The notes below the pieces were generated by a model that saw only the letters and a list, made by a program, of their open reading frames with translations, was not told the DNA's origin and searched no databases. DNA of 64,000 nucleotides from Candidatus Babeliales bacterium (GTDB lineage Bacteria; Babelota; Babeliae; Babelales; Vermiphilaceae), in the NCBI GenBank assembly GCA_963743635.1, contig CAVUQO010000003.1, forward strand, positions 128,001-192,000, in the 5' to 3' direction. The translations under genes were made by a program, and so were the position numbers. Within the stretch, counting starts at the first letter, position 1. Each line of letters begins with the position of its first letter. This document shows, one piece after another, positions 211-21,844 of this stretch.

Positions 211-246
211 TAATTTTGGTGTTGTAAAGTAGTATTTTTTTAGATT

Positions 247-331
247 AAAAGGGCTCTCGTAATTGAGGGTTCTTTTTGTTATTATTTAAATGATTTTTTT
301 GATATATCTGCAGTGTTAATTGAGGAAAAAT
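247..331 (+). promoter_or_regulatory. Conserved hairpin/promoter/RBS unit, copy 1 (diverged)
   Basis: AAAAGGGCTCTCGTAATTGAGGGTTCTTTTTG; same unit at about 2444, 4881 and 6227. Confidence 0.7.
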
Positions 332-2419
332 ATGAAGCGTATACTCGGTATGGTTGTTGCGGGGGTTTTAAGCGGCAGTATACATGCGATGGAGCAAGTG
401 GCGTTGCTTACATCGGATAATCAAACGGTAATGCTTGATGTAAATAAGGTGCCATTATTTGGAACGATCCAAAGTGTAGTGGCCGACACATTTCCAAAAA
501 CAACGGATGGTAAATTGGATTACTCGGCACAAAAAGATCCGATTCCACTACGTAACGTTTCGTATGATGTATTAACGCAGTTAGTTGATGATACCGATGG
601 CATGCGTGATAAGGGAGCCTTGCAAATACCCACTTATTCGGATGAAACACTTTCTCATACGATGGGCTTGCTCAACGCGGCAAATTATTTGGGTACGCAT
701 CCTTTGTTGTGCGCAAAATATGCAAAAAAAATAGCCGGATTATTGATATCGGATCGATCATTGGAGCAATTGCAACAGGCCCCAACGAAGCATCCTGCTT
801 TCAAGCCATATGCATTGGCGTATTGCGCAAAACAGATGATTTATCCATATATGCCGCAAACATGGGTTGATCGATCTACGATTGAGCATGATGGGATTGC
901 ATCGGTAGAATGTTCACCAGATAGCAGTGCAATACTGACTAAATCGCGATCGCGTGAAGGATCGACTTTCTTGCATGAAGCAAAAATGGCGAATGTGGCA
1001 ACGGGTAAAGTACAGTATGAGATTAGATATAAATGCGACAATAACTGCGTATATTTAGTTCCAGGTGCACTTGTAGAAGATCCAGGAAGTAGTTATGTGT
1101 GTGTGTGCGACGAGGATGAAATAAGTATAGAGAGTGCAGCATCGGGCGAGGTATATAAATTTGCTAGCAGCCACGCTCGTTTTTATCCGTTGATAATGTA
1201 CATGATTCAGCGACAGATGTTCTCGTTCAATAGCGTTATGGCAATAATGCCCCGCCGGGATGATACACTAGAAGTAGCGGACTTAGTGACGGACCGATTA
1301 TTGCATGAAATCAAGTGTGAGGGTCCGATTGCATCAGGAGTCCTTTCATCAGATGGCCGCGCGGCTGTTGTTAAATCAGAGGATGGAGTTGTAAAAATAG
1401 TAATGATTGAAACAGGCACAGTGTTTGACATTGAGCGCGAAAATACTGTTCTGGGGGCAACGGCTTCACCAGATAATAGCAAGGTTATGATTATGTTAGA
1501 TGATGATACCGCAGAGATAGTAGATATGGCAACGCATGAGGTATTGCATAGATTTAAAGGTGAATTTGGTGGACATGAAGGGTTTTTTTCGTCAGATAGT
1601 AGCATGGTGGCCAGTGTGTGGGATGGTGTTGGAAAAATACTAGATGCAGAAACAGGCCGAGTGTTGTACGAAACTGATAATAGCGGACGGCGCCGAGGAC
1701 TGGTGAAGTTTTCGCCGGATAGTAGTAAGGCGATGTTTTGTACCTACGAGTCTTCAAGTTCAATAATAGAGATAGTAAGCGTGGCAACGGGTACAGTGCT
1801 GGAGATTAAGCACGATACTCCCCTTGCAGGGGCGTTTTTTTCACCAGATAGCAATAGAGTGATGCTTTTTTTCGATAAGTCTAAGTCAGCAGAGATAATA
1901 AATGTGGCAAGGGGTGACGTAGGATTGCACGAGTTTGCGGCAAGGAATATACGCCTCTCGGGATGGTGGTTTGATAGTAAATCGGATACGCAATTTTTAC
2001 CCGACGGAAATAGGGCGGTTGTGATGTCGAAAAATACAGCAAAAATAATTGAGAAGGCCGCAAGTAACTTTGATCAGGCATTATTAATGCAATTAATGGA
2101 ATGGTGTCGCACAAATAAGCGTTCTGTGCCGCAATGTGGATGGGTGGAAGATGTAGTACATAGTTATACTGACCAGTTAACACTCAAGGCAGCAACTGAA
2201 CGAGCATTTTACATCGTCAATAGGTCCAAACAACCTTCGCAGACTATGTCAGCAATCTTGCAAGATGGTCGCCCCATAGATTCGGAAGATGACACGCCCG
2301 TGGAATCTACAGGGTCGCAGTCTGCGCATTTAATGGAAGATACATCAGATAGTCGAGTAAGACGTCTTGCCAGACAACTGAGAGCATCCTCACGAGATTC
2401 GAAATGTACGATTTCTTGA
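332..2419 (+). CDS. Secreted Skp1/BTB-like + WD40 beta-propeller protein with C-terminal CaaX (CTIS); candidate effector
   Basis: Signal peptide MKRILG...IHA-M. Skp1-like motifs LLTSDNQ, PIPLRNVS, LLNAANYLG. Repeated (F)SPDS blades. Ends DSKCTIS*. RBS GAGGA. Confidence 0.8.
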   Translation: MKRILGMVVAGVLSGSIHAMEQVALLTSDNQTVMLDVNKVPLFGTIQSVVADTFPKTTDGKLDYSAQKDPIPLRNVSYDVLTQLVDDTDGMRDKGALQIPTYSDETLSHTMGLLNAANYLGTHPLLCAKYAKKIAGLLISDRSLEQLQQAPTKHPAFKPYALAYCAKQMIYPYMPQTWVDRSTIEHDGIASVECSPDSSAILTKSRSREGSTFLHEAKMANVATGKVQYEIRYKCDNNCVYLVPGALVEDPGSSYVCVCDEDEISIESAASGEVYKFASSHARFYPLIMYMIQRQMFSFNSVMAIMPRRDDTLEVADLVTDRLLHEIKCEGPIASGVLSSDGRAAVVKSEDGVVKIVMIETGTVFDIERENTVLGATASPDNSKVMIMLDDDTAEIVDMATHEVLHRFKGEFGGHEGFFSSDSSMVASVWDGVGKILDAETGRVLYETDNSGRRRGLVKFSPDSSKAMFCTYESSSSIIEIVSVATGTVLEIKHDTPLAGAFFSPDSNRVMLFFDKSKSAEIINVARGDVGLHEFAARNIRLSGWWFDSKSDTQFLPDGNRAVVMSKNTAKIIEKAASNFDQALLMQLMEWCRTNKRSVPQCGWVEDVVHSYTDQLTLKAATERAFYIVNRSKQPSQTMSAILQDGRPIDSEDDTPVESTGSQSAHLMEDTSDSRVRRLARQLRASSRDSKCTIS

Positions 2420-2443
2420 ATATCCATAAATAAAAACATATTT

Positions 2444-2528
2444 AAAAGGGCTCTCGTAATTGAGAGCCCTTTTTTGTATAATGTGTGGCGTTAAATTTTT
2501 ATGCATAGCTACTGTAAGGAAATGCGTT
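2444..2528 (+). promoter_or_regulatory. Conserved hairpin/promoter/RBS unit, copy 2
   Basis: AAAAGGGCTCTC-GTAATT-GAGAGCCCTTTTTT, then TATAAT, then AAGGA RBS. Confidence 0.75.
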
Positions 2529-2867: not shown

Positions 2868-3251
2868 ATGCAAAAACTACTATTCATCTCTCTGATATGT
2901 TTGTCATCAGGATTGAATGCGATGTACCCCTGGAATTTATCCGAAAAGGAACGTGAAGCACGGGAGGCTGAAGGAGAGGAGCGGGCCCGAGCGCGGCATG
3001 CTCAAAGAGAGCAGGAGAGGCAAGAGCAAGAGCGCCAATGGCGAGAGGAAAGGCAGCTACAACGGCAAGAAGAAGAACGTCGACGACAACAAGAAGAACA
3101 CCAACGGCAAGAAGAAGAACGTCGACGACAGGAAGAAGAACGCCAACGGCAAGAAGAAGAACGGCTACGACGACAAGAAGAATTAGTGTATCGATTTGAA
3201 CGTGCAGTGCAATATGCCGAGGAAATGAATAAAAAAAATGAACAAAAATAA
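2868..3251 (+). CDS. Secreted Glu/Arg/Gln-rich single-alpha-helix or coiled-coil protein
   Basis: Signal peptide ...LNA-M; QRQEEERRRQ repeats encoded by 21-nt tandem units. Confidence 0.7.
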   Translation: MQKLLFISLICLSSGLNAMYPWNLSEKEREAREAEGEERARARHAQREQERQEQERQWREERQLQRQEEERRRQQEEHQRQEEERRRQEEERQRQEEERLRRQEELVYRFERAVQYAEEMNKKNEQK

Positions 3252-4742: not shown

Positions 4743-4880
4743 AAGACATATCCTTTAGAAAAAGAACAACATTAAAATTTTGATCTAATGTACATTCATA
4801 ATGAGAAAAAACAAATTATGTGAACCAAATTTAGATCTCCAGTTTTTTCATATAAATAAACATTAAAAATAATGTCTTTA

Positions 4881-4965
4881 AAAAGGGCTCTCGTAATTGA
4901 GGGCCCTTTTTTGTATAGTGGGTGACGTTAAAATTTTATGCATAGTTACTGTAAGGAAGCGGACT
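4881..4965 (+). promoter_or_regulatory. Conserved hairpin/promoter/RBS unit, copy 3
   Basis: AAAAGGGCTCTCGTAATTGAGGGCCCTTTTTTGTATAGTGGGTGACGTTAAAATTTTAT. Confidence 0.75.
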
Positions 4966-6201
4966 ATGAAACGGATATTCGGTATGGCGGTTGGTTTGGG
5001 AATTTTGGGTGGAAATTTGCATGCGATGGAACAAGGGCAATCGAGTCAACAGCTTGATTATTCGTTTGTAAAAGCAGGCAATTATGAACATAAGAATGTT
5101 GATTTTGCAACTATTTCACCTGATGGCAACACCATCGCGAGCGTCTCGTGTTTGGCTAGAACGGTAAAGATTAAGTCATTGAGAACAGACGAACCTCCCT
5201 GTTGTTTTTCATTGCCCCATGAATACGAGGTAAAACTAGCAGAATTTTCACCCGATTCCAGCAAAATTGCGGTTGTGACTAAATATGATGCTCCTGGATG
5301 TTTTTTCATACTTGATGTAATTAAGAAGCAGAAAGGAGATAACGCTATAATATCTCCAAAGGCTTTCATGTTTCCCTGCGAATCAATAACGTTTGTACCC
5401 GGCAAAGAAAAGGTGATTGTGGCTGATCAAAAATCGGTAAAAGTTGTTAATATTTCTACGGGGCAAGCCGAGCATGAAATTGCGCTCGACCACTTCAAGT
5501 ATATTCGAGCATATTATTTACAAGGAGCTACTACGTTGCTTGCCTTATTGAATAATGGCATAGCAAAAAGAGTGAATCTTTCTACAAATGAAGATTTATC
5601 GGATATTACTTATCAAAGTGGTTCGATTGGAGGGAATGCTGGCTGGGGTGCAAGAATGGGCAACACGTCGGCTTTATCGGGCAATAAGATGGTGATCATC
5701 TCAGATGATAATAGCGTTGATGCGAAAACGGGTGATAATAGCGTGGGGGTCTATGATGCGACAACGGGTGAAAAAAAAATTGTAGTACCTACAGACCTTG
5801 TTAAGCGGGCGAGTACGGTAGCTTTATCTCCAGATGGTAAGGTTTTAGGATTTGCGCATCGTACTAGATACGTTTCTATAGTAGATGCAGAGACGGCTGA
5901 ATTGAAGCATACGGTACCTAATAAATCGAGCGGCTCTATCGTCTCTATAACGTTTTCACAAGATAATCGTTTTATGTTGGTTAGGCCTTGTTGGAACGGT
6001 GGGCCAGTCACTCTCTACGATGTTCAAACAGGTGAGAGTAAATTTGAATTTGAAGGCAGAATGCATACTTCGGGAGTATTTTCGACCGCAGGTGATTATG
6101 TGGTAGTCTCATCGTGTGATCTGAGCAAGGTCATGATTGTTCGGCGAATAATTGCCCAGTCTGCGCAATCCTCACAAGATTCGAAATGTATAATTTCTTG
6201 A
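4966..6201 (+). CDS. Secreted WD40-like beta-propeller with C-terminal CaaX (CIIS)
   Basis: Signal ...LHA-M; SPDG/FSPD/FSQD blades; ends DSKCIIS*. Confidence 0.8.
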   Translation: MKRIFGMAVGLGILGGNLHAMEQGQSSQQLDYSFVKAGNYEHKNVDFATISPDGNTIASVSCLARTVKIKSLRTDEPPCCFSLPHEYEVKLAEFSPDSSKIAVVTKYDAPGCFFILDVIKKQKGDNAIISPKAFMFPCESITFVPGKEKVIVADQKSVKVVNISTGQAEHEIALDHFKYIRAYYLQGATTLLALLNNGIAKRVNLSTNEDLSDITYQSGSIGGNAGWGARMGNTSALSGNKMVIISDDNSVDAKTGDNSVGVYDATTGEKKIVVPTDLVKRASTVALSPDGKVLGFAHRTRYVSIVDAETAELKHTVPNKSSGSIVSITFSQDNRFMLVRPCWNGGPVTLYDVQTGESKFEFEGRMHTSGVFSTAGDYVVVSSCDLSKVMIVRRIIAQSAQSSQDSKCIIS

Positions 6202-6226
6202 ACATCCATAAATAACAAGGCTATTT

Positions 6227-6312
6227 AAAAGGGCTCTCGTAATTGAGGGCCCTTTTTTGTATAGTGGGTGACGTTAAAATTTTATACATAGGTATCGTGA
6301 AGGAAATGGACT
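6227..6312 (+). promoter_or_regulatory. Conserved hairpin/promoter/RBS unit, copy 4
   Basis: Identical to copy 3 over about 60 nt. Confidence 0.75.
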
Positions 6313-7701
6313 ATGAAACGGATATTTGTTATAGCGGTTGTGGCGGGATTTTTGGGCGGCAGTGTGCATGCAATGCAGCAGAAACAATCGAGTCAGCAGC
6401 TTGAATACTCTTTCGTAAAGGCAGGCAATTATGAACATAAGAATGTTGATTTTGCAACTATTTCACCTGATGGCAAGGCGTTATTAACAACATCGCATGG
6501 AGGGTGGAAAGCCCCATACCGCGGAACTATAATGCTCAAACATATTGATAGTCGGGAAGAACCCGTTTGCTTTGAGCACAGGAGCAGTGAAATGTTGGCG
6601 GCCTTTTCATCCGATAGTAAACGGGCTGCAGTTTCGAGTCGGTATCACGCCAATAATGGAGCATTAATTATACTTGATGTGGTTAAGGGTAAGATAGAGA
6701 AGGAAATCCCTACTAATGATAAGGGTTGGCATTTTTTGTCGTTTGCATCAGGTGACACAAAGGTGATTACAGTTGGATATAGCTCGGTGCATATCTTTAA
6801 TAGCGATACGGGAGAAATAGAGCGTAAGATCGACGAGTATAGCGATAACATTGGAATATGTTTTTTTAAAGAGAATGTCTTGATGGCATTATTGCATAAT
6901 GGCGTGATAAAAAGTGTAGATCTCGGCACTCTTAAAGACTTGCCAGATATTACCTGTTTAGATGCACCCAAGGCTTGGGATTCTTGGGTAGGATCTGCAT
7001 CTGCGTTGGGTAATCGGGTGGTTATTGTTGGAGAAGCCGATGATGTGAACGTGTACGATGCGCAAACAGGCCATAAAATAGTGAAAATGCCTATGGGGAG
7101 AGTATCTGACTTTCATAATCGGTATCATGTGAGGCGGACTGGGTTATCATCAAGTGGCGATACTCTTGTACTTGGATTGCAGGGGAACCGAGGAGAGAAG
7201 GCAATGGTAGCTATAGCAGATATAAAGGGATGTTCAGGAATACATACTTTCAATCTTGAAATTTGTTTTAAAGAAGATGGTCTCCTAAGCCCCATAAATG
7301 CACCAGCAATAAAATTGTCGCCGGATGACCGTTCAATGTTAGTTGAGCCTGGGGATTGGAATTGTACAGGGCCCGCAGTTATCTATGATGTGCAAACGGG
7401 TGAAAAGAAATTTGAATTTGAAGGCGGCGAGAAGAATTCTACATATGGATTATTTTCTCCTAATGGTGAGTATGTGGTGGCTGCATCGGATGGAATAGTG
7501 CAGATTGCTCGGCGGATAATTGCGCAGTCCTTACAGGCGTCGGGACCATCAGAGCCTGCGCGTGCTTCACAAGCAGATGAAGATGATAAACCCGTGCAGT
7601 CTGGAGGTTCGCAATCTTTGCAGTTAGTGGAAGTGACATGGGGGAGTCGGGTCAGAAATCTTACCAGACGGCTGATAGCATCTTTACAATTTTCGAAATG
7701 A
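6313..7701 (+). CDS. Secreted WD40-like beta-propeller; CaaX Cys codon replaced by stop
   Basis: Paralogue of 4966-6201; ends TCG AAA TGA ATG GTT TCT TGA. Confidence 0.8.
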   Translation: MKRIFVIAVVAGFLGGSVHAMQQKQSSQQLEYSFVKAGNYEHKNVDFATISPDGKALLTTSHGGWKAPYRGTIMLKHIDSREEPVCFEHRSSEMLAAFSSDSKRAAVSSRYHANNGALIILDVVKGKIEKEIPTNDKGWHFLSFASGDTKVITVGYSSVHIFNSDTGEIERKIDEYSDNIGICFFKENVLMALLHNGVIKSVDLGTLKDLPDITCLDAPKAWDSWVGSASALGNRVVIVGEADDVNVYDAQTGHKIVKMPMGRVSDFHNRYHVRRTGLSSSGDTLVLGLQGNRGEKAMVAIADIKGCSGIHTFNLEICFKEDGLLSPINAPAIKLSPDDRSMLVEPGDWNCTGPAVIYDVQTGEKKFEFEGGEKNSTYGLFSPNGEYVVAASDGIVQIARRIIAQSLQASGPSEPARASQADEDDKPVQSGGSQSLQLVEVTWGSRVRNLTRRLIASLQFSK

Positions 7702-16706: not shown

Positions 16707-17858
16707 TTATACCACCGCGCAGGGAATTTGAGTGGGGAGTCGCGTAGTGATTTCTCGTGGATTAGCGCTGCCCAGACGCGCTGCAAGATCATGGGCGCGT
16801 ACGCCATCAAAATCACCCATCAAAATTACCTCATCTCCAACGCGAGCATGCGGAACGTCTGTAATATCGATGATCATAAAGTTCATGCATATGCGGCCAA
16901 GTACGGGTGCATAATAGTGAGTTTTGCGCGTGGTATCATTGGCGCTGATGATCACGTTACCATTGTTGCTCAGTTTGCGATCATATCCTTCATAATAACC
17001 AACGGGCAGAATTGCCGTGGTTGTTTCGCGTGTTGCGATAAAAAGGCGATCGTAGCTGACCGATGAGCCAGCAGGAATTGTTTTAGTGTAGATGATGCGT
17101 GTTTTCCACGCGAGCGCTTGTTTGAGTTGGATTGTATCGGTATGACGATCTAGAATATGTTTTGGCACGATTCCATAGACGCCGGCGCCAATGCGTACAA
17201 GATTATGATGCGCATCACTGATGCCTAAAACAGCAGCAGAATTTGAGGTATGTTTTATTGGAATGGTGAGACCGTGTTGCGCTAATTGAGCAATGAGGTC
17301 AGTGAATAGTGCGAGTTGTTGGCGTGTGAAGGTTTGATCTTCTTTGTCTGATTGTATGAAATGCGTGGTGATGCCACGGATGACAAGATTGGGTAATCGT
17401 GCCATGCGCATGATGACGTCAAATGCTTCATGAGCAAAGAGCCCAAAGCGCGATAATCCCGTATCAATTTTTATGTGTATGTATGCGTTTTTGCGTTGTT
17501 TTTGTGCAAACATGCTGAGCAGCACTGCCGTTTCATAATCATAAATCACCATATCAAGATCGTAGGTAACAACTGTTTCAGGATCCGCGTTCAAAAAATA
17601 CATTGCGAGGATTGGTTTTGTGATACCCGCTTCGCGCAATGCGATCGCTTCGGTAACGTTTGCGGTACATATATAGGAAACGTTATCATTGGTTTCGCAC
17701 ACGCCGCCCACTTGTAGTAAACCATGTCCATATGCATTGCTTTTCACCACAACGCCGAGCATCGCATCATTGCCAATGCGTTGTTTGTAACATGCGATGT
17801 TATGTTCCATGGCTGCGCGAGAAAGCTCAAGCCATGTCTGAGTGTATTGCGTATACAT
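16707..17858 (-). CDS. alr: Alanine racemase
   Basis: VVKSNAYGHG PLP-lysine motif, HIKIDTGLSRFG, SNSAA, VRIGAGVYG, GRICMN. Confidence 0.97.
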   Translation of the reverse strand: MYTQYTQTWLELSRAAMEHNIACYKQRIGNDAMLGVVVKSNAYGHGLLQVGGVCETNDNVSYICTANVTEAIALREAGITKPILAMYFLNADPETVVTYDLDMVIYDYETAVLLSMFAQKQRKNAYIHIKIDTGLSRFGLFAHEAFDVIMRMARLPNLVIRGITTHFIQSDKEDQTFTRQQLALFTDLIAQLAQHGLTIPIKHTSNSAAVLGISDAHHNLVRIGAGVYGIVPKHILDRHTDTIQLKQALAWKTRIIYTKTIPAGSSVSYDRLFIATRETTTAILPVGYYEGYDRKLSNNGNVIISANDTTRKTHYYAPVLGRICMNFMIIDITDVPHARVGDEVILMGDFDGVRAHDLAARLGSANPREITTRLPTQIPCAVV

Positions 17859-17981: not shown

Positions 17982-19262
17982 TTAAGCGGTGTAGCGTATG
18001 AGTGAAAAAGTACTATCACTTAGTCCGGCGGTTACCGCTTCTCCGTCTGACTGAATACCGACAGCCTGAGCGAAAGCAAATGATCCGACGCTGGTAGAAG
18101 TGTAGCCATTGGTGCCATACGAGAGATTAAGAGATCCCGACGGAGTATATCGTGCGATATTCGTGTTATAAGTTAGGCCGGCGCTACTGTATCCAGCCGC
18201 TATAATATCATCGGTATAAGAATAATCATTGGTTTGTAATGCGAGTGCGTAGAATTCAGAGCTGTAGTTTATTTGCGTGGTAACATATCCTGTGCCATTA
18301 AATGAGGTGTCAAGGGCGCCACTTGGAGTGCATCTGATAAGAAGAGAGTTATAAACCTGATCAAAATCATCTTCCGCAACAAAAATGCTTCCGGCTATAA
18401 CGATGTAATTATTTTGATCAAGTATCATATCGTATCCAACTGCAACGTTGCCAACGCTGGGCATAAATATTCCTGATGAGCCAAAGCTAGGATCAAGTGC
18501 ACCACTTGGCGTGTAGCGCGCAAGCGTAATTTGTTCGTCTGAATTGCCCAGCACAATAATATAATCCTGATAAATACCACTGGGTACGATAGCAATTGCT
18601 TGTATGTATGAGATAACCCCAATTTGGGTAGTAGTGATGCCGGCTGTTCCAAAAGAGGTATCAAGAGTTCCCGCATAAACTCCCGAAGCGATAAAGCGTG
18701 CGAGTGTAAATTGAGGAGTCTCATTATTGATGCTAACGCCTGCGACAATAATATTTCCTGAGCTTTGTATGCCTACCGCATATGCAGCAGATCCATCGCC
18801 GGTGGTAACGGTAGCATAACCATTAGGGCTATTGAATGCGGTGTCGAGGGTGCCGTTCGTATTATAACGAGCGACGAGCATGTTGGTTTCAGTTTGAAAG
18901 GTAAAGCCTGATACCACAATTTTTTGATCAGAAGGTTGCAATGCAAGATCATATCCTTCAGCGCGGGTGCCAACTAAAAGCGCGTTGGTGCCTGGTGTGC
19001 TGCCTCCGCTGTTAAATGTAGTATCAAGAACGCCATTATTTGTGTATCGCGCTAAAAAAAGTTCTGGATATGTCTGCGAGCTGGTTCCTGTAATGACAAT
19101 GTCATTGTTAGTTTGTATTTGAAGACTTCTCAGAATGTCGCGACGACTTGCTTGTGTCAGAGTAAAACCAACATTACCAAAGCTGGTATCAATTTGGCCT
19201 GAAGTAATAATAGATACACTGTGTATAAGGTAGATTGCGGTGATAATATATTTCATATTCAT
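17982..19262 (-). CDS. Secreted delta-60/DUF5122-type repeat beta-propeller
   Basis: Repeated LARY..G.LD.SFG..G and Q.D.KIVVxG motifs. Confidence 0.85.
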   Translation of the reverse strand: MNMKYIITAIYLIHSVSIITSGQIDTSFGNVGFTLTQASRRDILRSLQIQTNNDIVITGTSSQTYPELFLARYTNNGVLDTTFNSGGSTPGTNALLVGTRAEGYDLALQPSDQKIVVSGFTFQTETNMLVARYNTNGTLDTAFNSPNGYATVTTGDGSAAYAVGIQSSGNIIVAGVSINNETPQFTLARFIASGVYAGTLDTSFGTAGITTTQIGVISYIQAIAIVPSGIYQDYIIVLGNSDEQITLARYTPSGALDPSFGSSGIFMPSVGNVAVGYDMILDQNNYIVIAGSIFVAEDDFDQVYNSLLIRCTPSGALDTSFNGTGYVTTQINYSSEFYALALQTNDYSYTDDIIAAGYSSAGLTYNTNIARYTPSGSLNLSYGTNGYTSTSVGSFAFAQAVGIQSDGEAVTAGLSDSTFSLIRYTA

Positions 19263-19273
19263 GAACTTAACCC

Positions 19274-21844
<2,571 letters not shown>

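Follow-up and report, generated by a model that had tools for sequence, protein, structure and literature searches.

A Skp1-homologous domain fused to a WD40 propeller in a Babeliales protein family: candidate F-box-independent receptors for host Cullin-1 ligase

The window analysed here, a 64,000-nucleotide (nt) stretch of a Candidatus Babeliales bacterium genome (assembly GCA_963743635.1, contig CAVUQO010000003.1, positions 128,001 to 192,000 of the forward strand), encodes near its start a protein of 695 amino acids (aa), in an open reading frame (ORF) that runs from an ATG at 332 to a stop codon at 2417-2419, as placed by an earlier first-pass annotation. Sequence profiles and structural models identify the N-terminal domain of this protein as a true homologue of eukaryotic Skp1, of Skp1 type specifically and not a mere BTB look-alike; it follows a signal-peptide-like N-terminus, is fused to a WD40 beta-propeller, and the protein ends in the CaaX-type sequence CTIS. 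The first-pass annotation took the gene singly, but about 21 paralogs, itself included, are encoded by the genome (1.45 Mb in three contigs, ~42% G+C, estimated 85% complete). With a probability put at roughly 0.45, the protein could be exported, be prenylated by the host and serve as an F-box-independent receptor of the host's Cullin-1 (Cul1) ligase, that is, a single-chain stand-in for Skp1 plus an F-box protein. The sequence motifs quoted in the first-pass annotation are all present in the translation, the terminal CTIS included, and the gene is composed of the following parts:

322-326 and 332-334, + strand: ribosome-binding site GAGGA and start codon ATG, by direct sequence reading
332..391, + strand: signal-peptide-like N-terminus (aa 1-20), with MKR, 12-14 hydrophobic residues and HAM before EQ
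398..751, + strand: Skp1-homologous BTB/POZ domain (aa 23-140), with PIPLRNV and AANYL
752..862, + strand: family-specific helical linker (aa 141-177) in place of the F-box-binding extension of Skp1, ending in a family-invariant Trp before the propeller
863..2056, + strand: divergent WD40 beta-propeller (aa 178-575), with ~34 strands in the full model
2069..2209, + strand: small C-terminal helical domain (aa 580-626) with a family-conserved FDQxLL...W motif
2210..2404, + strand: probably disordered tail (aa 627-691, ~65 residues), with a predicted local distance difference test score (pLDDT) of 29-54 over most of its length and a basic Arg-rich helix at aa 673-684
2405..2419, + strand: CaaX-type end CTIS (aa 692-695, from the translation) and stop codon

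A TTG at 320, four codons 5' of the ATG, is a less likely alternative start. Four public metagenome runs of two studies (peat and soil) yielded contigs in which the covered parts of the gene show no difference, and this identity excludes an assembly artefact; in the same contigs no variation was found inside the gene from which selection could be read, and no RNA run carrying the gene was found among the public runs listed.

The Skp1-homologous domain and the propeller

Single-sequence Pfam searches do not reveal the Skp1-like domain of the window copy. Indeed, the search with the whole protein returned no Skp1 or BTB match and weak beta-propeller families alone, searches with the N-terminal 183 aa (aa 21-203) and the C-terminal 139 aa returned nothing at E<=10, and a full-length homologue search was flooded by WD40 proteins and uninformative on the N-terminal domain. 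On single-sequence Pfam alone the Skp1 reading would fail; it is rescued by the paralog profile (A1), built from an alignment of the N-terminal domains of 19 paralogs of the same genome. Against PDB at E<=10, this profile matched 50 distinct sequences, namely 33 Skp1 (human, Dictyostelium, Arabidopsis and yeast; best E 9.9e-8, aligned to Skp1 residues 3-126), 11 Elongin C (E 0.67-2.1) and six unrelated proteins, and no other BTB protein was among the matches listed. Comparison of the paralog profile with 11 canonical Skp1 sequences by hhalign gave a probability of 99.1% (E 7.7e-19, 128 columns). When Pfam was run on each paralog, Skp1_POZ was found in 7/19 (best 1.2e-6) and BTB (PF00651) in 4/19 (best 0.0016), the window copy not being among them.

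Structural comparisons gave the same ranking. An AlphaFold2 model computed on the paralog alignment (residues 23-179) reached a pLDDT of 89.0 and a predicted template modelling score (pTM) of 0.83. With this domain model, all matches listed by Foldseek were chains of 116-163 residues from entries containing SKP1/ASK1 (best E 2.6e-5), and all 50 matches listed by VIA-align likewise came from SKP1/ASK1 entries (Z 9.7-11.2, root-mean-square deviation 2.2-3.8 A, 88-119 residues aligned, 16-27% identity), model residues 1-137 lying on Skp1 4-142. Among the viral models of BFVD, the best matches were Skp1 family proteins of giant viruses, which ranked above giant-virus and poxvirus BTB proteins. Because Skp1 outranks BTB in both sequence and fold searches, the domain is read as Skp1-type and not as generic BTB; a generic BTB/Cul3-adaptor identity, which was the first choice at the start, was moved to second place, since every search ranks Skp1 above BTB. 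The Skp1/BTB fold proposed in the first-pass annotation is thus borne out by the agreement of the profile search, hhalign and the modelling with Foldseek and VIA-align. The Skp1 likeness of the window copy is confirmed as being beyond chance, but at the level of the family alone: this copy is divergent and, taken by itself, lies below the Pfam Skp1_POZ threshold, a point that the annotation had overlooked.

The homology covers a defined part of Skp1. According to hhalign, it spans Skp1 profile positions 1-130 of 165 and stops there. The paralogs were aligned with canonical Skp1 and compared at 34 columns, those in which 9 or more of the 11 Skp1 sequences have the same residue. Up to about position 125 these columns are often kept (first-strand Asp in 14/19 paralogs; Pro and Leu of the third-strand P-L in 14/19 each), and the best-conserved part is the motif of helix 5 (H5; A, A/G, Y/F, L). 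All 19 paralogs have the second Ala and the Leu of this A-A-x-Y-L motif, and 13/19 have the Tyr, with Phe in the other six; the full AANYL of Skp1 is found in the window copy alone among the 19. From position 130 on, eight of the nine columns conserved in Skp1 persist in 0-1 of the 19 paralogs (N144 is kept in 5/19), and at three of these columns the residue of Skp1 is replaced by a paralog-invariant residue of the family's own. The position of the lost extension is taken by a linker of ~40 residues, which in the full model is helical at 141-149 and 164-173, contains an invariant Trp (W156 of the domain alignment) and runs directly into the first propeller blade.

In eukaryotic Skp1, the BTB/POZ domain at the N-terminus binds Cullin-1, and a ~35-residue extension at the C-terminal end wraps around the F-box helices, according to the available text of PMC5282575. 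As the homology ends at position 130, the part kept is the cullin-binding one and the part replaced the F-box-binding one. Searches of the 85%-complete genome found no match to the Skp1 C-terminal domain (PF01466, E<=1), no F-box (PF12937 and PF00646, E<=0.01) and no cullin, and Pfam found no F-box family in the window protein. As none of these was found in the genome, a partner would need to be supplied by the host. The earlier idea that the F-box is bypassed gains support from the confinement of the homology to Skp1 positions 1-130 and from the lack of F-box matches in the genome, and is still a prediction from sequence.

For the C-terminal part of the protein, Pfam beta-propeller families (best 5.4e-8, all under the curated cut-offs), WD40 sequence matches in PDB (best 5.6e-7; Fbw7 WD40 weakly, at 9.3e-5) and a full-length model (35-sequence alignment A2; pLDDT 77, pTM 0.75; Skp1-like domain at residues 22-173) agree on a WD40 beta-propeller, and with it on the fusion that had been proposed. 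Foldseek searches with this model returned generic propellers (ODA16, Apaf-1, RACK1, G-beta), with E values of 1e-17 to WD40 propellers such as ODA16, and no solved chain spanning both domains was among the matches. From the strand list, the propeller probably has about eight blades. TolB gave weak matches to part of it (E 3.9e-4 to 4e-3); a periplasmic TolB-like identity is unlikely given the Skp1 homology and the excess of CaaX ends described below. Downstream of the propeller, the small helical domain is modelled as three helices (580-594, 603-611 and 615-626; pLDDT ~90) with a nearly invariant W604 in A2, and has no Pfam family at E<=10. The tail that follows (aa 627-691) is probably disordered.

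Paralog family, export signal and CaaX-type ends

The count of about 21 paralogs is made up of 22 domain matches, two of which lie in one gene, and one further copy, and the paralogs share a layout of signal-like N-terminus, Skp1-like domain and WD40 repeats. They cluster at contig ends (C2:4-1698, C2:1852-3777 and C3:1311-8038), and two in-frame TGA codons are present in the copy with which C2 begins. An array of paralogs is probably where the assembly breaks, and the true copy number may be higher.

Outside this genome, a profile search of 1.84 billion representative proteins gave 151 matches at E<=1e-3, 62 of them at E<=1e-10. Pfam was applied to 42 of the 150 matches listed and found WD40 or other propeller families in 38, no family in three and tandem Skp1_POZ only in one (P0123). 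The matches below about E 1e-7 are ~160-aa proteins; of 14 such proteins, 11 have both Pfam Skp1 domains and three have Skp1_POZ alone, and by sequence these are canonical Skp1. Among 200 sampled other genomes of the phylum, eight have a match at E<=1e-5; all belong to the same order and carry 1-5 copies each, against the 19 scored here. One relative in another genome reaches 55 bits on Skp1_POZ, beside WD40 repeats. The fusion thus appears to be a patchy speciality of the order, greatly expanded in this genome. Other Skp1 fusions that lack an F-box are also present in public data, namely P0195 (546 aa), in which Skp1_POZ is joined to leucine-rich repeats, and P0123 (778 aa), with several tandem Skp1_POZ domains.

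The features of the N-terminus, read from the sequence by eye, fit a Sec-exported protein with a putatively cleavable signal peptide; aa 1-20 have a pLDDT of ~41 in the full-length model. In a set of 1446 crude non-overlapping ORFs of the genome, the motif [GHQNS]AM[EQ] occurs within the first 75 aa of 53 genes, against eight in aa 75-150. The stretch encoding the signal is common to neighbouring genes (repeat families D5 and D8, at 2528, 4965 and 6312). The signal-like N-terminus fits the export proposed in the first-pass annotation, which had overlooked that the route suggested is a Sec-type signal and not an injection system.

The same 1446 ORFs were searched for CaaX-like ends, defined by Cys at -4, an aliphatic residue at -2 and, as the very last residue of the protein, a permissive one. 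Such an end is found at the exact C-terminus of 12 ORFs, where 1.25 would be expected from the density of the pattern (Poisson P ~1e-8), and eleven shifted control positions gave counts of 0-3. Ten of the 12 genes have a hydrophobic, signal-like N-terminus, and four belong to the Skp1-WD40 family (CTIS, CSLQ and, twice, CSIL); the 12 include C1:27437-28957, C2:148043-149644, C3:370570-372201 and C3:392561-393358. CaaX boxes with Ser or Gln as last residue are directed to farnesylation and those with Leu to geranylgeranylation, as is predicted for the CSIL paralogs. Judged from these ends, the genome seems to use host prenylation widely.

Of 65 relatives from elsewhere, taken as representatives at 50% identity, a signal-like N-terminus is present in 50 and Cys at -4 in six (CVIQ twice, CTIS, CIIM and CAII twice). 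In another genome of the same order (G138:C1:403000-414500, - strand), five tandem genes encode a signal peptide, a Skp1-like domain and WD40 repeats (Pfam WD40 checked on two), and four of these five have, in place of a CaaX box, a hydrophobic end segment that resembles a tail anchor and is followed by a few polar residues. Membrane tethering by one device or the other may therefore recur in the family, most copies having neither.

The gene is flanked by repeated DNA cassettes:

245..285, + strand: conserved intergenic hairpin cassette, with a terminator-like stem-loop at 247-276 followed by a T-run
2386..2473, strand not assigned: shared 3' cassette (family D10), comprising the last codons (..DSKC-x-IS), the stop codon and downstream DNA, with a hairpin after
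245-285, 2442-2482, 4879-4919 and 6225-6265: hairpins of the 5' cassette
331-398, 2528-2598, 4965-5035 and 6312-6382: signal-peptide-coding starts of the 5' cassette

The hairpin cassette (repeat family D6) recurs at 2442, 4879 and 6225, before three further exported-protein genes, with 83-85% identity to the copy at 245-285. Four consecutive exported-protein genes thus have a modular 5' cassette in common, consisting of a GC-rich hairpin with a T-run, a TATAAT-like stretch and the signal-peptide-coding start; two of the four also carry the 3' cassette that encodes the CaaX tail. In D10, the 3' end at 2386-2436 is 90% identical to 6168-6218 of a neighbouring WD40 gene, which ends in CIIS, and a two-way terminator-like hairpin lies at 2444-2473, 3' of the gene. 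From these repeats, it looks as if export and anchoring modules have been shuffled or gene-converted between effector genes.

Two of the neighbouring genes (4966-6201 and 6313-7701, both + strand) encode WD40 proteins with the same signal peptide and no Skp1-like domain; their 5' parts have a DNA identity of 85% (family D2), and the first protein ends in CIIS while the second has no CaaX box. Between 2529 and 4742 lie five small ORFs (~80-140 aa; four on the + strand, one on the - strand) with signal-like N-termini and no Pfam family, of which ORF 2868-3251 has Arg/Glu/Gln-rich repeats that arise from a 21-nt tandem repeat at 3042-3182. Further downstream, a collagen-like Gly-rich repeat protein (17982-21832, - strand) matches SclB (3e-58) and Lcl (1e-49), both below the adhesin cut-offs; it overlaps a delta-60-repeat protein and is adjoined by an alanine racemase (16707-17858). 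Of 27 large ORFs searched in the stretch 12909-62994, 23 lack an NCBIfam match at E<=1e-20, and by sequence the window is mostly lineage-specific, effector-like coding sequence.

Candidate role in the host and competing explanations

In the proposed mechanism, (i) the Sec-type signal peptide would export the protein, which would be released from the intracellular bacterium, (ii) in the host cytosol, the host would farnesylate CTIS, which together with the preceding basic stretch would form a membrane tether, (iii) the Skp1-derived BTB/POZ domain would dock on the N-terminal domain of host Cullin-1, taking the place of host Skp1, and (iv) the WD40 propeller, fused where Skp1 would clasp the F-box, would bring in a host protein to be ubiquitinated; with their different propellers, the about 21 paralogs would serve as a panel of receptors. 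Secretion into the host cytosol, prenylation, cullin binding, target ubiquitination and cleavage of the signal are all inferred from the sequence. A role as Cul1 receptor follows a known logic, because BTB-propeller proteins serve Cul3 likewise; here it would be reached from Skp1 itself. By extension, and more tentatively, the family may represent natural F-box-independent Cul1 receptors, in which the part of a captured eukaryotic Skp1 that binds cullin was welded to a propeller and multiplied to ~20 copies, some of them pinned to host membranes by a CaaX box and others, in relatives, by a tail anchor, a degrader design unknown from eukaryotes.

The lineage fits a host-directed role. The tyrosyl-tRNA synthetase of the genome has its nearest relative, at 70% identity, in a Candidatus Babeliales metagenome-assembled genome. 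In the available texts of PMC4378268 and PMC6561590, the phylum (Dependentiae/TM6) is known solely as intracellular parasites of protists. In published genomes of the phylum, most ankyrin-repeat proteins bear a signal peptide, and a Sec system and components of type II secretion are encoded, as are ubiquitin-system proteins (in Babela, an F-box protein, a RING protein and deubiquitinases), according to the available texts of PMC6561590, PMC4378268 and PMC4776705. Two secretins are encoded in the genome studied here, in line with what these texts report for the phylum. The available parts of the three papers mention no bacterial Skp1-like or BTB protein; in two of these texts 'BTB' has 0 occurrences, and 'Skp1' appears solely in a reference title.

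Several observations weigh against a Cul1 receptor. The window copy scores 11 bits in a six-frame scan, below the 21.9-bit gathering threshold of PF03931 (Skp1_POZ), and of nine Skp1_POZ matches in the genome a single one (31.1 bits) exceeds it. Trp 89 and HH 65-66 are among several Skp1-invariant residues that no paralog retains, and the Asn of AANYL is kept in the window copy alone (1/19). This Asn presumably contacts Cul1, in which case conservation of the cullin surface would not extend to the whole family. The ratio of nonsynonymous to synonymous substitution rates (dN/dS) of the Skp1-like domain is 0.36-0.97 among five tandem paralogs, which indicates weak constraint, and a modelled fold alone cannot say which cullin, if any, is bound. 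The propeller of the window copy is divergent and has low-confidence inserts (aa 244-251, 282-301 and 529-549). The claim of a CaaX box made in the first-pass annotation gains from the genome-wide excess on exported-looking proteins and loses from the presence of the box on just four of about 21 paralogs. Moreover, these ends are not all independent: the CTIS tail belongs to a DNA cassette in common with a neighbour, and the two CSIL genes are recent tandem duplicates. Finally, a Sec signal would deliver the protein to the periplasm, from which it would still have to reach the host cytosol.

Some of these points could also suit a host-directed scaffold that engages no cullin, in which the Skp1/BTB fold would be a stable or self-associating head and the protein would bind or sequester host proteins, on a membrane in the CaaX copies, without ubiquitination. 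BTB folds commonly mediate oligomerisation, and the loss of many Skp1-invariant residues, the AANYL Asn among them, the dN/dS values and the lack of CaaX in most paralogs would all be expected of such a scaffold. It nevertheless appears unlikely: the region retained is exactly the Cul1-binding domain, with the H5 motif best conserved, and the pairing of a Skp1-type domain with a receptor-type propeller, found repeatedly in several genomes, mirrors the logic of cullin ligases. That the Cul1-binding part is kept and the F-box-binding part lost could also point to an inhibitor of the Skp1-Cul1-F-box (SCF) ligase, a decoy whose Skp1-like domain would occupy host Cul1, or a Skp1 partner of the same surface such as Sgt1, and block SCF assembly by capping Cul1 unproductively, while propeller and lipid tail would localise it. 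Cul1 and Sgt1 do use one Skp1 surface, according to the available text of PMC5282575. A decoy would have no need for a propeller, still less for about 21 diversified ones, and WD40 propellers are typical substrate receptors, which makes this explanation distinctly improbable.

The protein could also serve the bacterium itself, as a TolB-like or surface-associated WD40 protein of the envelope or periplasm whose CaaX-like end is a coincidence or has a bacterial use. Such a protein would be expected to carry a Sec-type signal, and the weak TolB matches would find a place; no injection system was found, none having been searched for, and the route to the host cytosol is hypothetical. This explanation is very unlikely, as the domain is a Skp1 homologue whose nearest relatives outside the bacterial fusions are canonical Skp1, CaaX-like ends recur in relatives and show an about tenfold excess that is specific to the true C-terminus, and the phylum is, in the available literature, known solely as intracellular parasites of protists. 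A Cul1 receptor is still the simplest of these explanations, at the tentative strength given at the outset.

Relation to known systems and significance

The bacterial domain and eukaryotic Skp1 (PF03931 + PF01466; PDB 1FS1, 2ASS, 6V88) have a homologous BTB/POZ domain with the same fold and share the I-x-L-x-S/T-x-D strand, P-I/V-P-L-x-N-V and AANYL motifs; the position of the variable acidic loop of Skp1 is also matched in most paralogs. They differ in that the last ~35 residues of Skp1, which clasp the F-box, are undetectable in the bacterial family, and in that Skp1 is a free protein of ~160 aa whereas the bacterial domain is preceded by a signal peptide and followed by a WD40 propeller. 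Adaptors of Cul3 (BTB-BACK-Kelch proteins, poxvirus BTB-Kelch proteins and plant BTB_2 proteins with a propeller of At2g24240 type) likewise combine a BTB-fold cullin-docking head and a beta-propeller receptor in one chain. Unlike them, the family has Skp1 as first match in both profile and fold searches, the propeller is of WD40 and not Kelch type, and Pfam found no BACK/3-box in the window protein. A language-model search with the homologue P0111 placed clusters with BTB and propeller nearest (scores 0.75-0.77), which is a lead only. The available text of PMC4209131 describes BTB-box proteins as functional equivalents of F-box proteins. F-box/WD40 receptors (Fbw7, beta-TrCP, Cdc4) resemble the fusion in that a WD40 receptor is held beside Skp1; theirs is joined through the F-box/Skp1 interface, whereas here the link is covalent and there is no F-box.

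Bacterial mimicry of cullin-ligase receptors is known from Legionella F-box effectors and from the F-box and BTB-box proteins of Parachlamydiaceae. Legionella pneumophila AnkB is an F-box effector anchored to the host-derived membrane through host farnesylation of its C-terminal CaaX (PMC2916131 and PMC5506055, available texts), so that host farnesylation of a bacterial SCF-type effector has a precedent. Both AnkB and the window protein would be SCF-type mimics with a CaaX end, prenylation of the latter being predicted from its sequence. However, AnkB imitates an F-box protein and depends on host Skp1, whereas Skp1 itself is what the window protein would mimic; a type IV system injects AnkB, whose receptor consists of ankyrin repeats, whereas the window protein has a Sec-type signal and a WD40 receptor. 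In Parachlamydiaceae, large families that evolve fast, lie partly in tandem and combine repeat domains with a docking domain for ubiquitin ligases were described in 2014 (PMC4209131, available text). As is proposed for the present case, these are expanded docking-domain/repeat fusions of amoeba-associated intracellular bacteria, but they belong to a different phylum, combine F-box, BTB-box or RING/U-box with LRR or TPR domains and are type III substrates; in the available text of that paper, 'WD40' has 0 occurrences and Skp1 is mentioned solely as a host partner.

Giant viruses of protists, which are parasites of the same hosts, have Skp1-fold proteins of their own (Pithovirus, E 7.6e-5; Pandoravirus, 3e-4), but their top Skp1 matches, at 171-254 aa, leave no room for a propeller. 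The BTB/POZ proteins of Mimivirus (513-550 aa), which we take to be BTB plus WD-repeat proteins, match weakly (E 0.1). In the full-text literature, with most subscription journals and supplements outside its scope, no bacterial Skp1-derived domain fused to WD40 was found described. The fusion of a Skp1-derived domain to a WD40 propeller is what would be new here.

In summary, known hijacking of cullin-RING ligases by intracellular bacteria and by viruses imitates the exchangeable receptor (F-box, BTB-box or SOCS-box), whereas here the adaptor Skp1 itself would be imitated, trimmed and fused to the receptor. If this is true, the family would represent a minimal, naturally evolved way of wiring an arbitrary binder to Cul1, and the phylum would join the organisms that exploit host prenylation. 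It would also offer a handle on the control of protist hosts by the almost unstudied Babeliales/Dependentiae, in which the about 21 paralogs with their differing propellers would already provide a set of probes of host targets.

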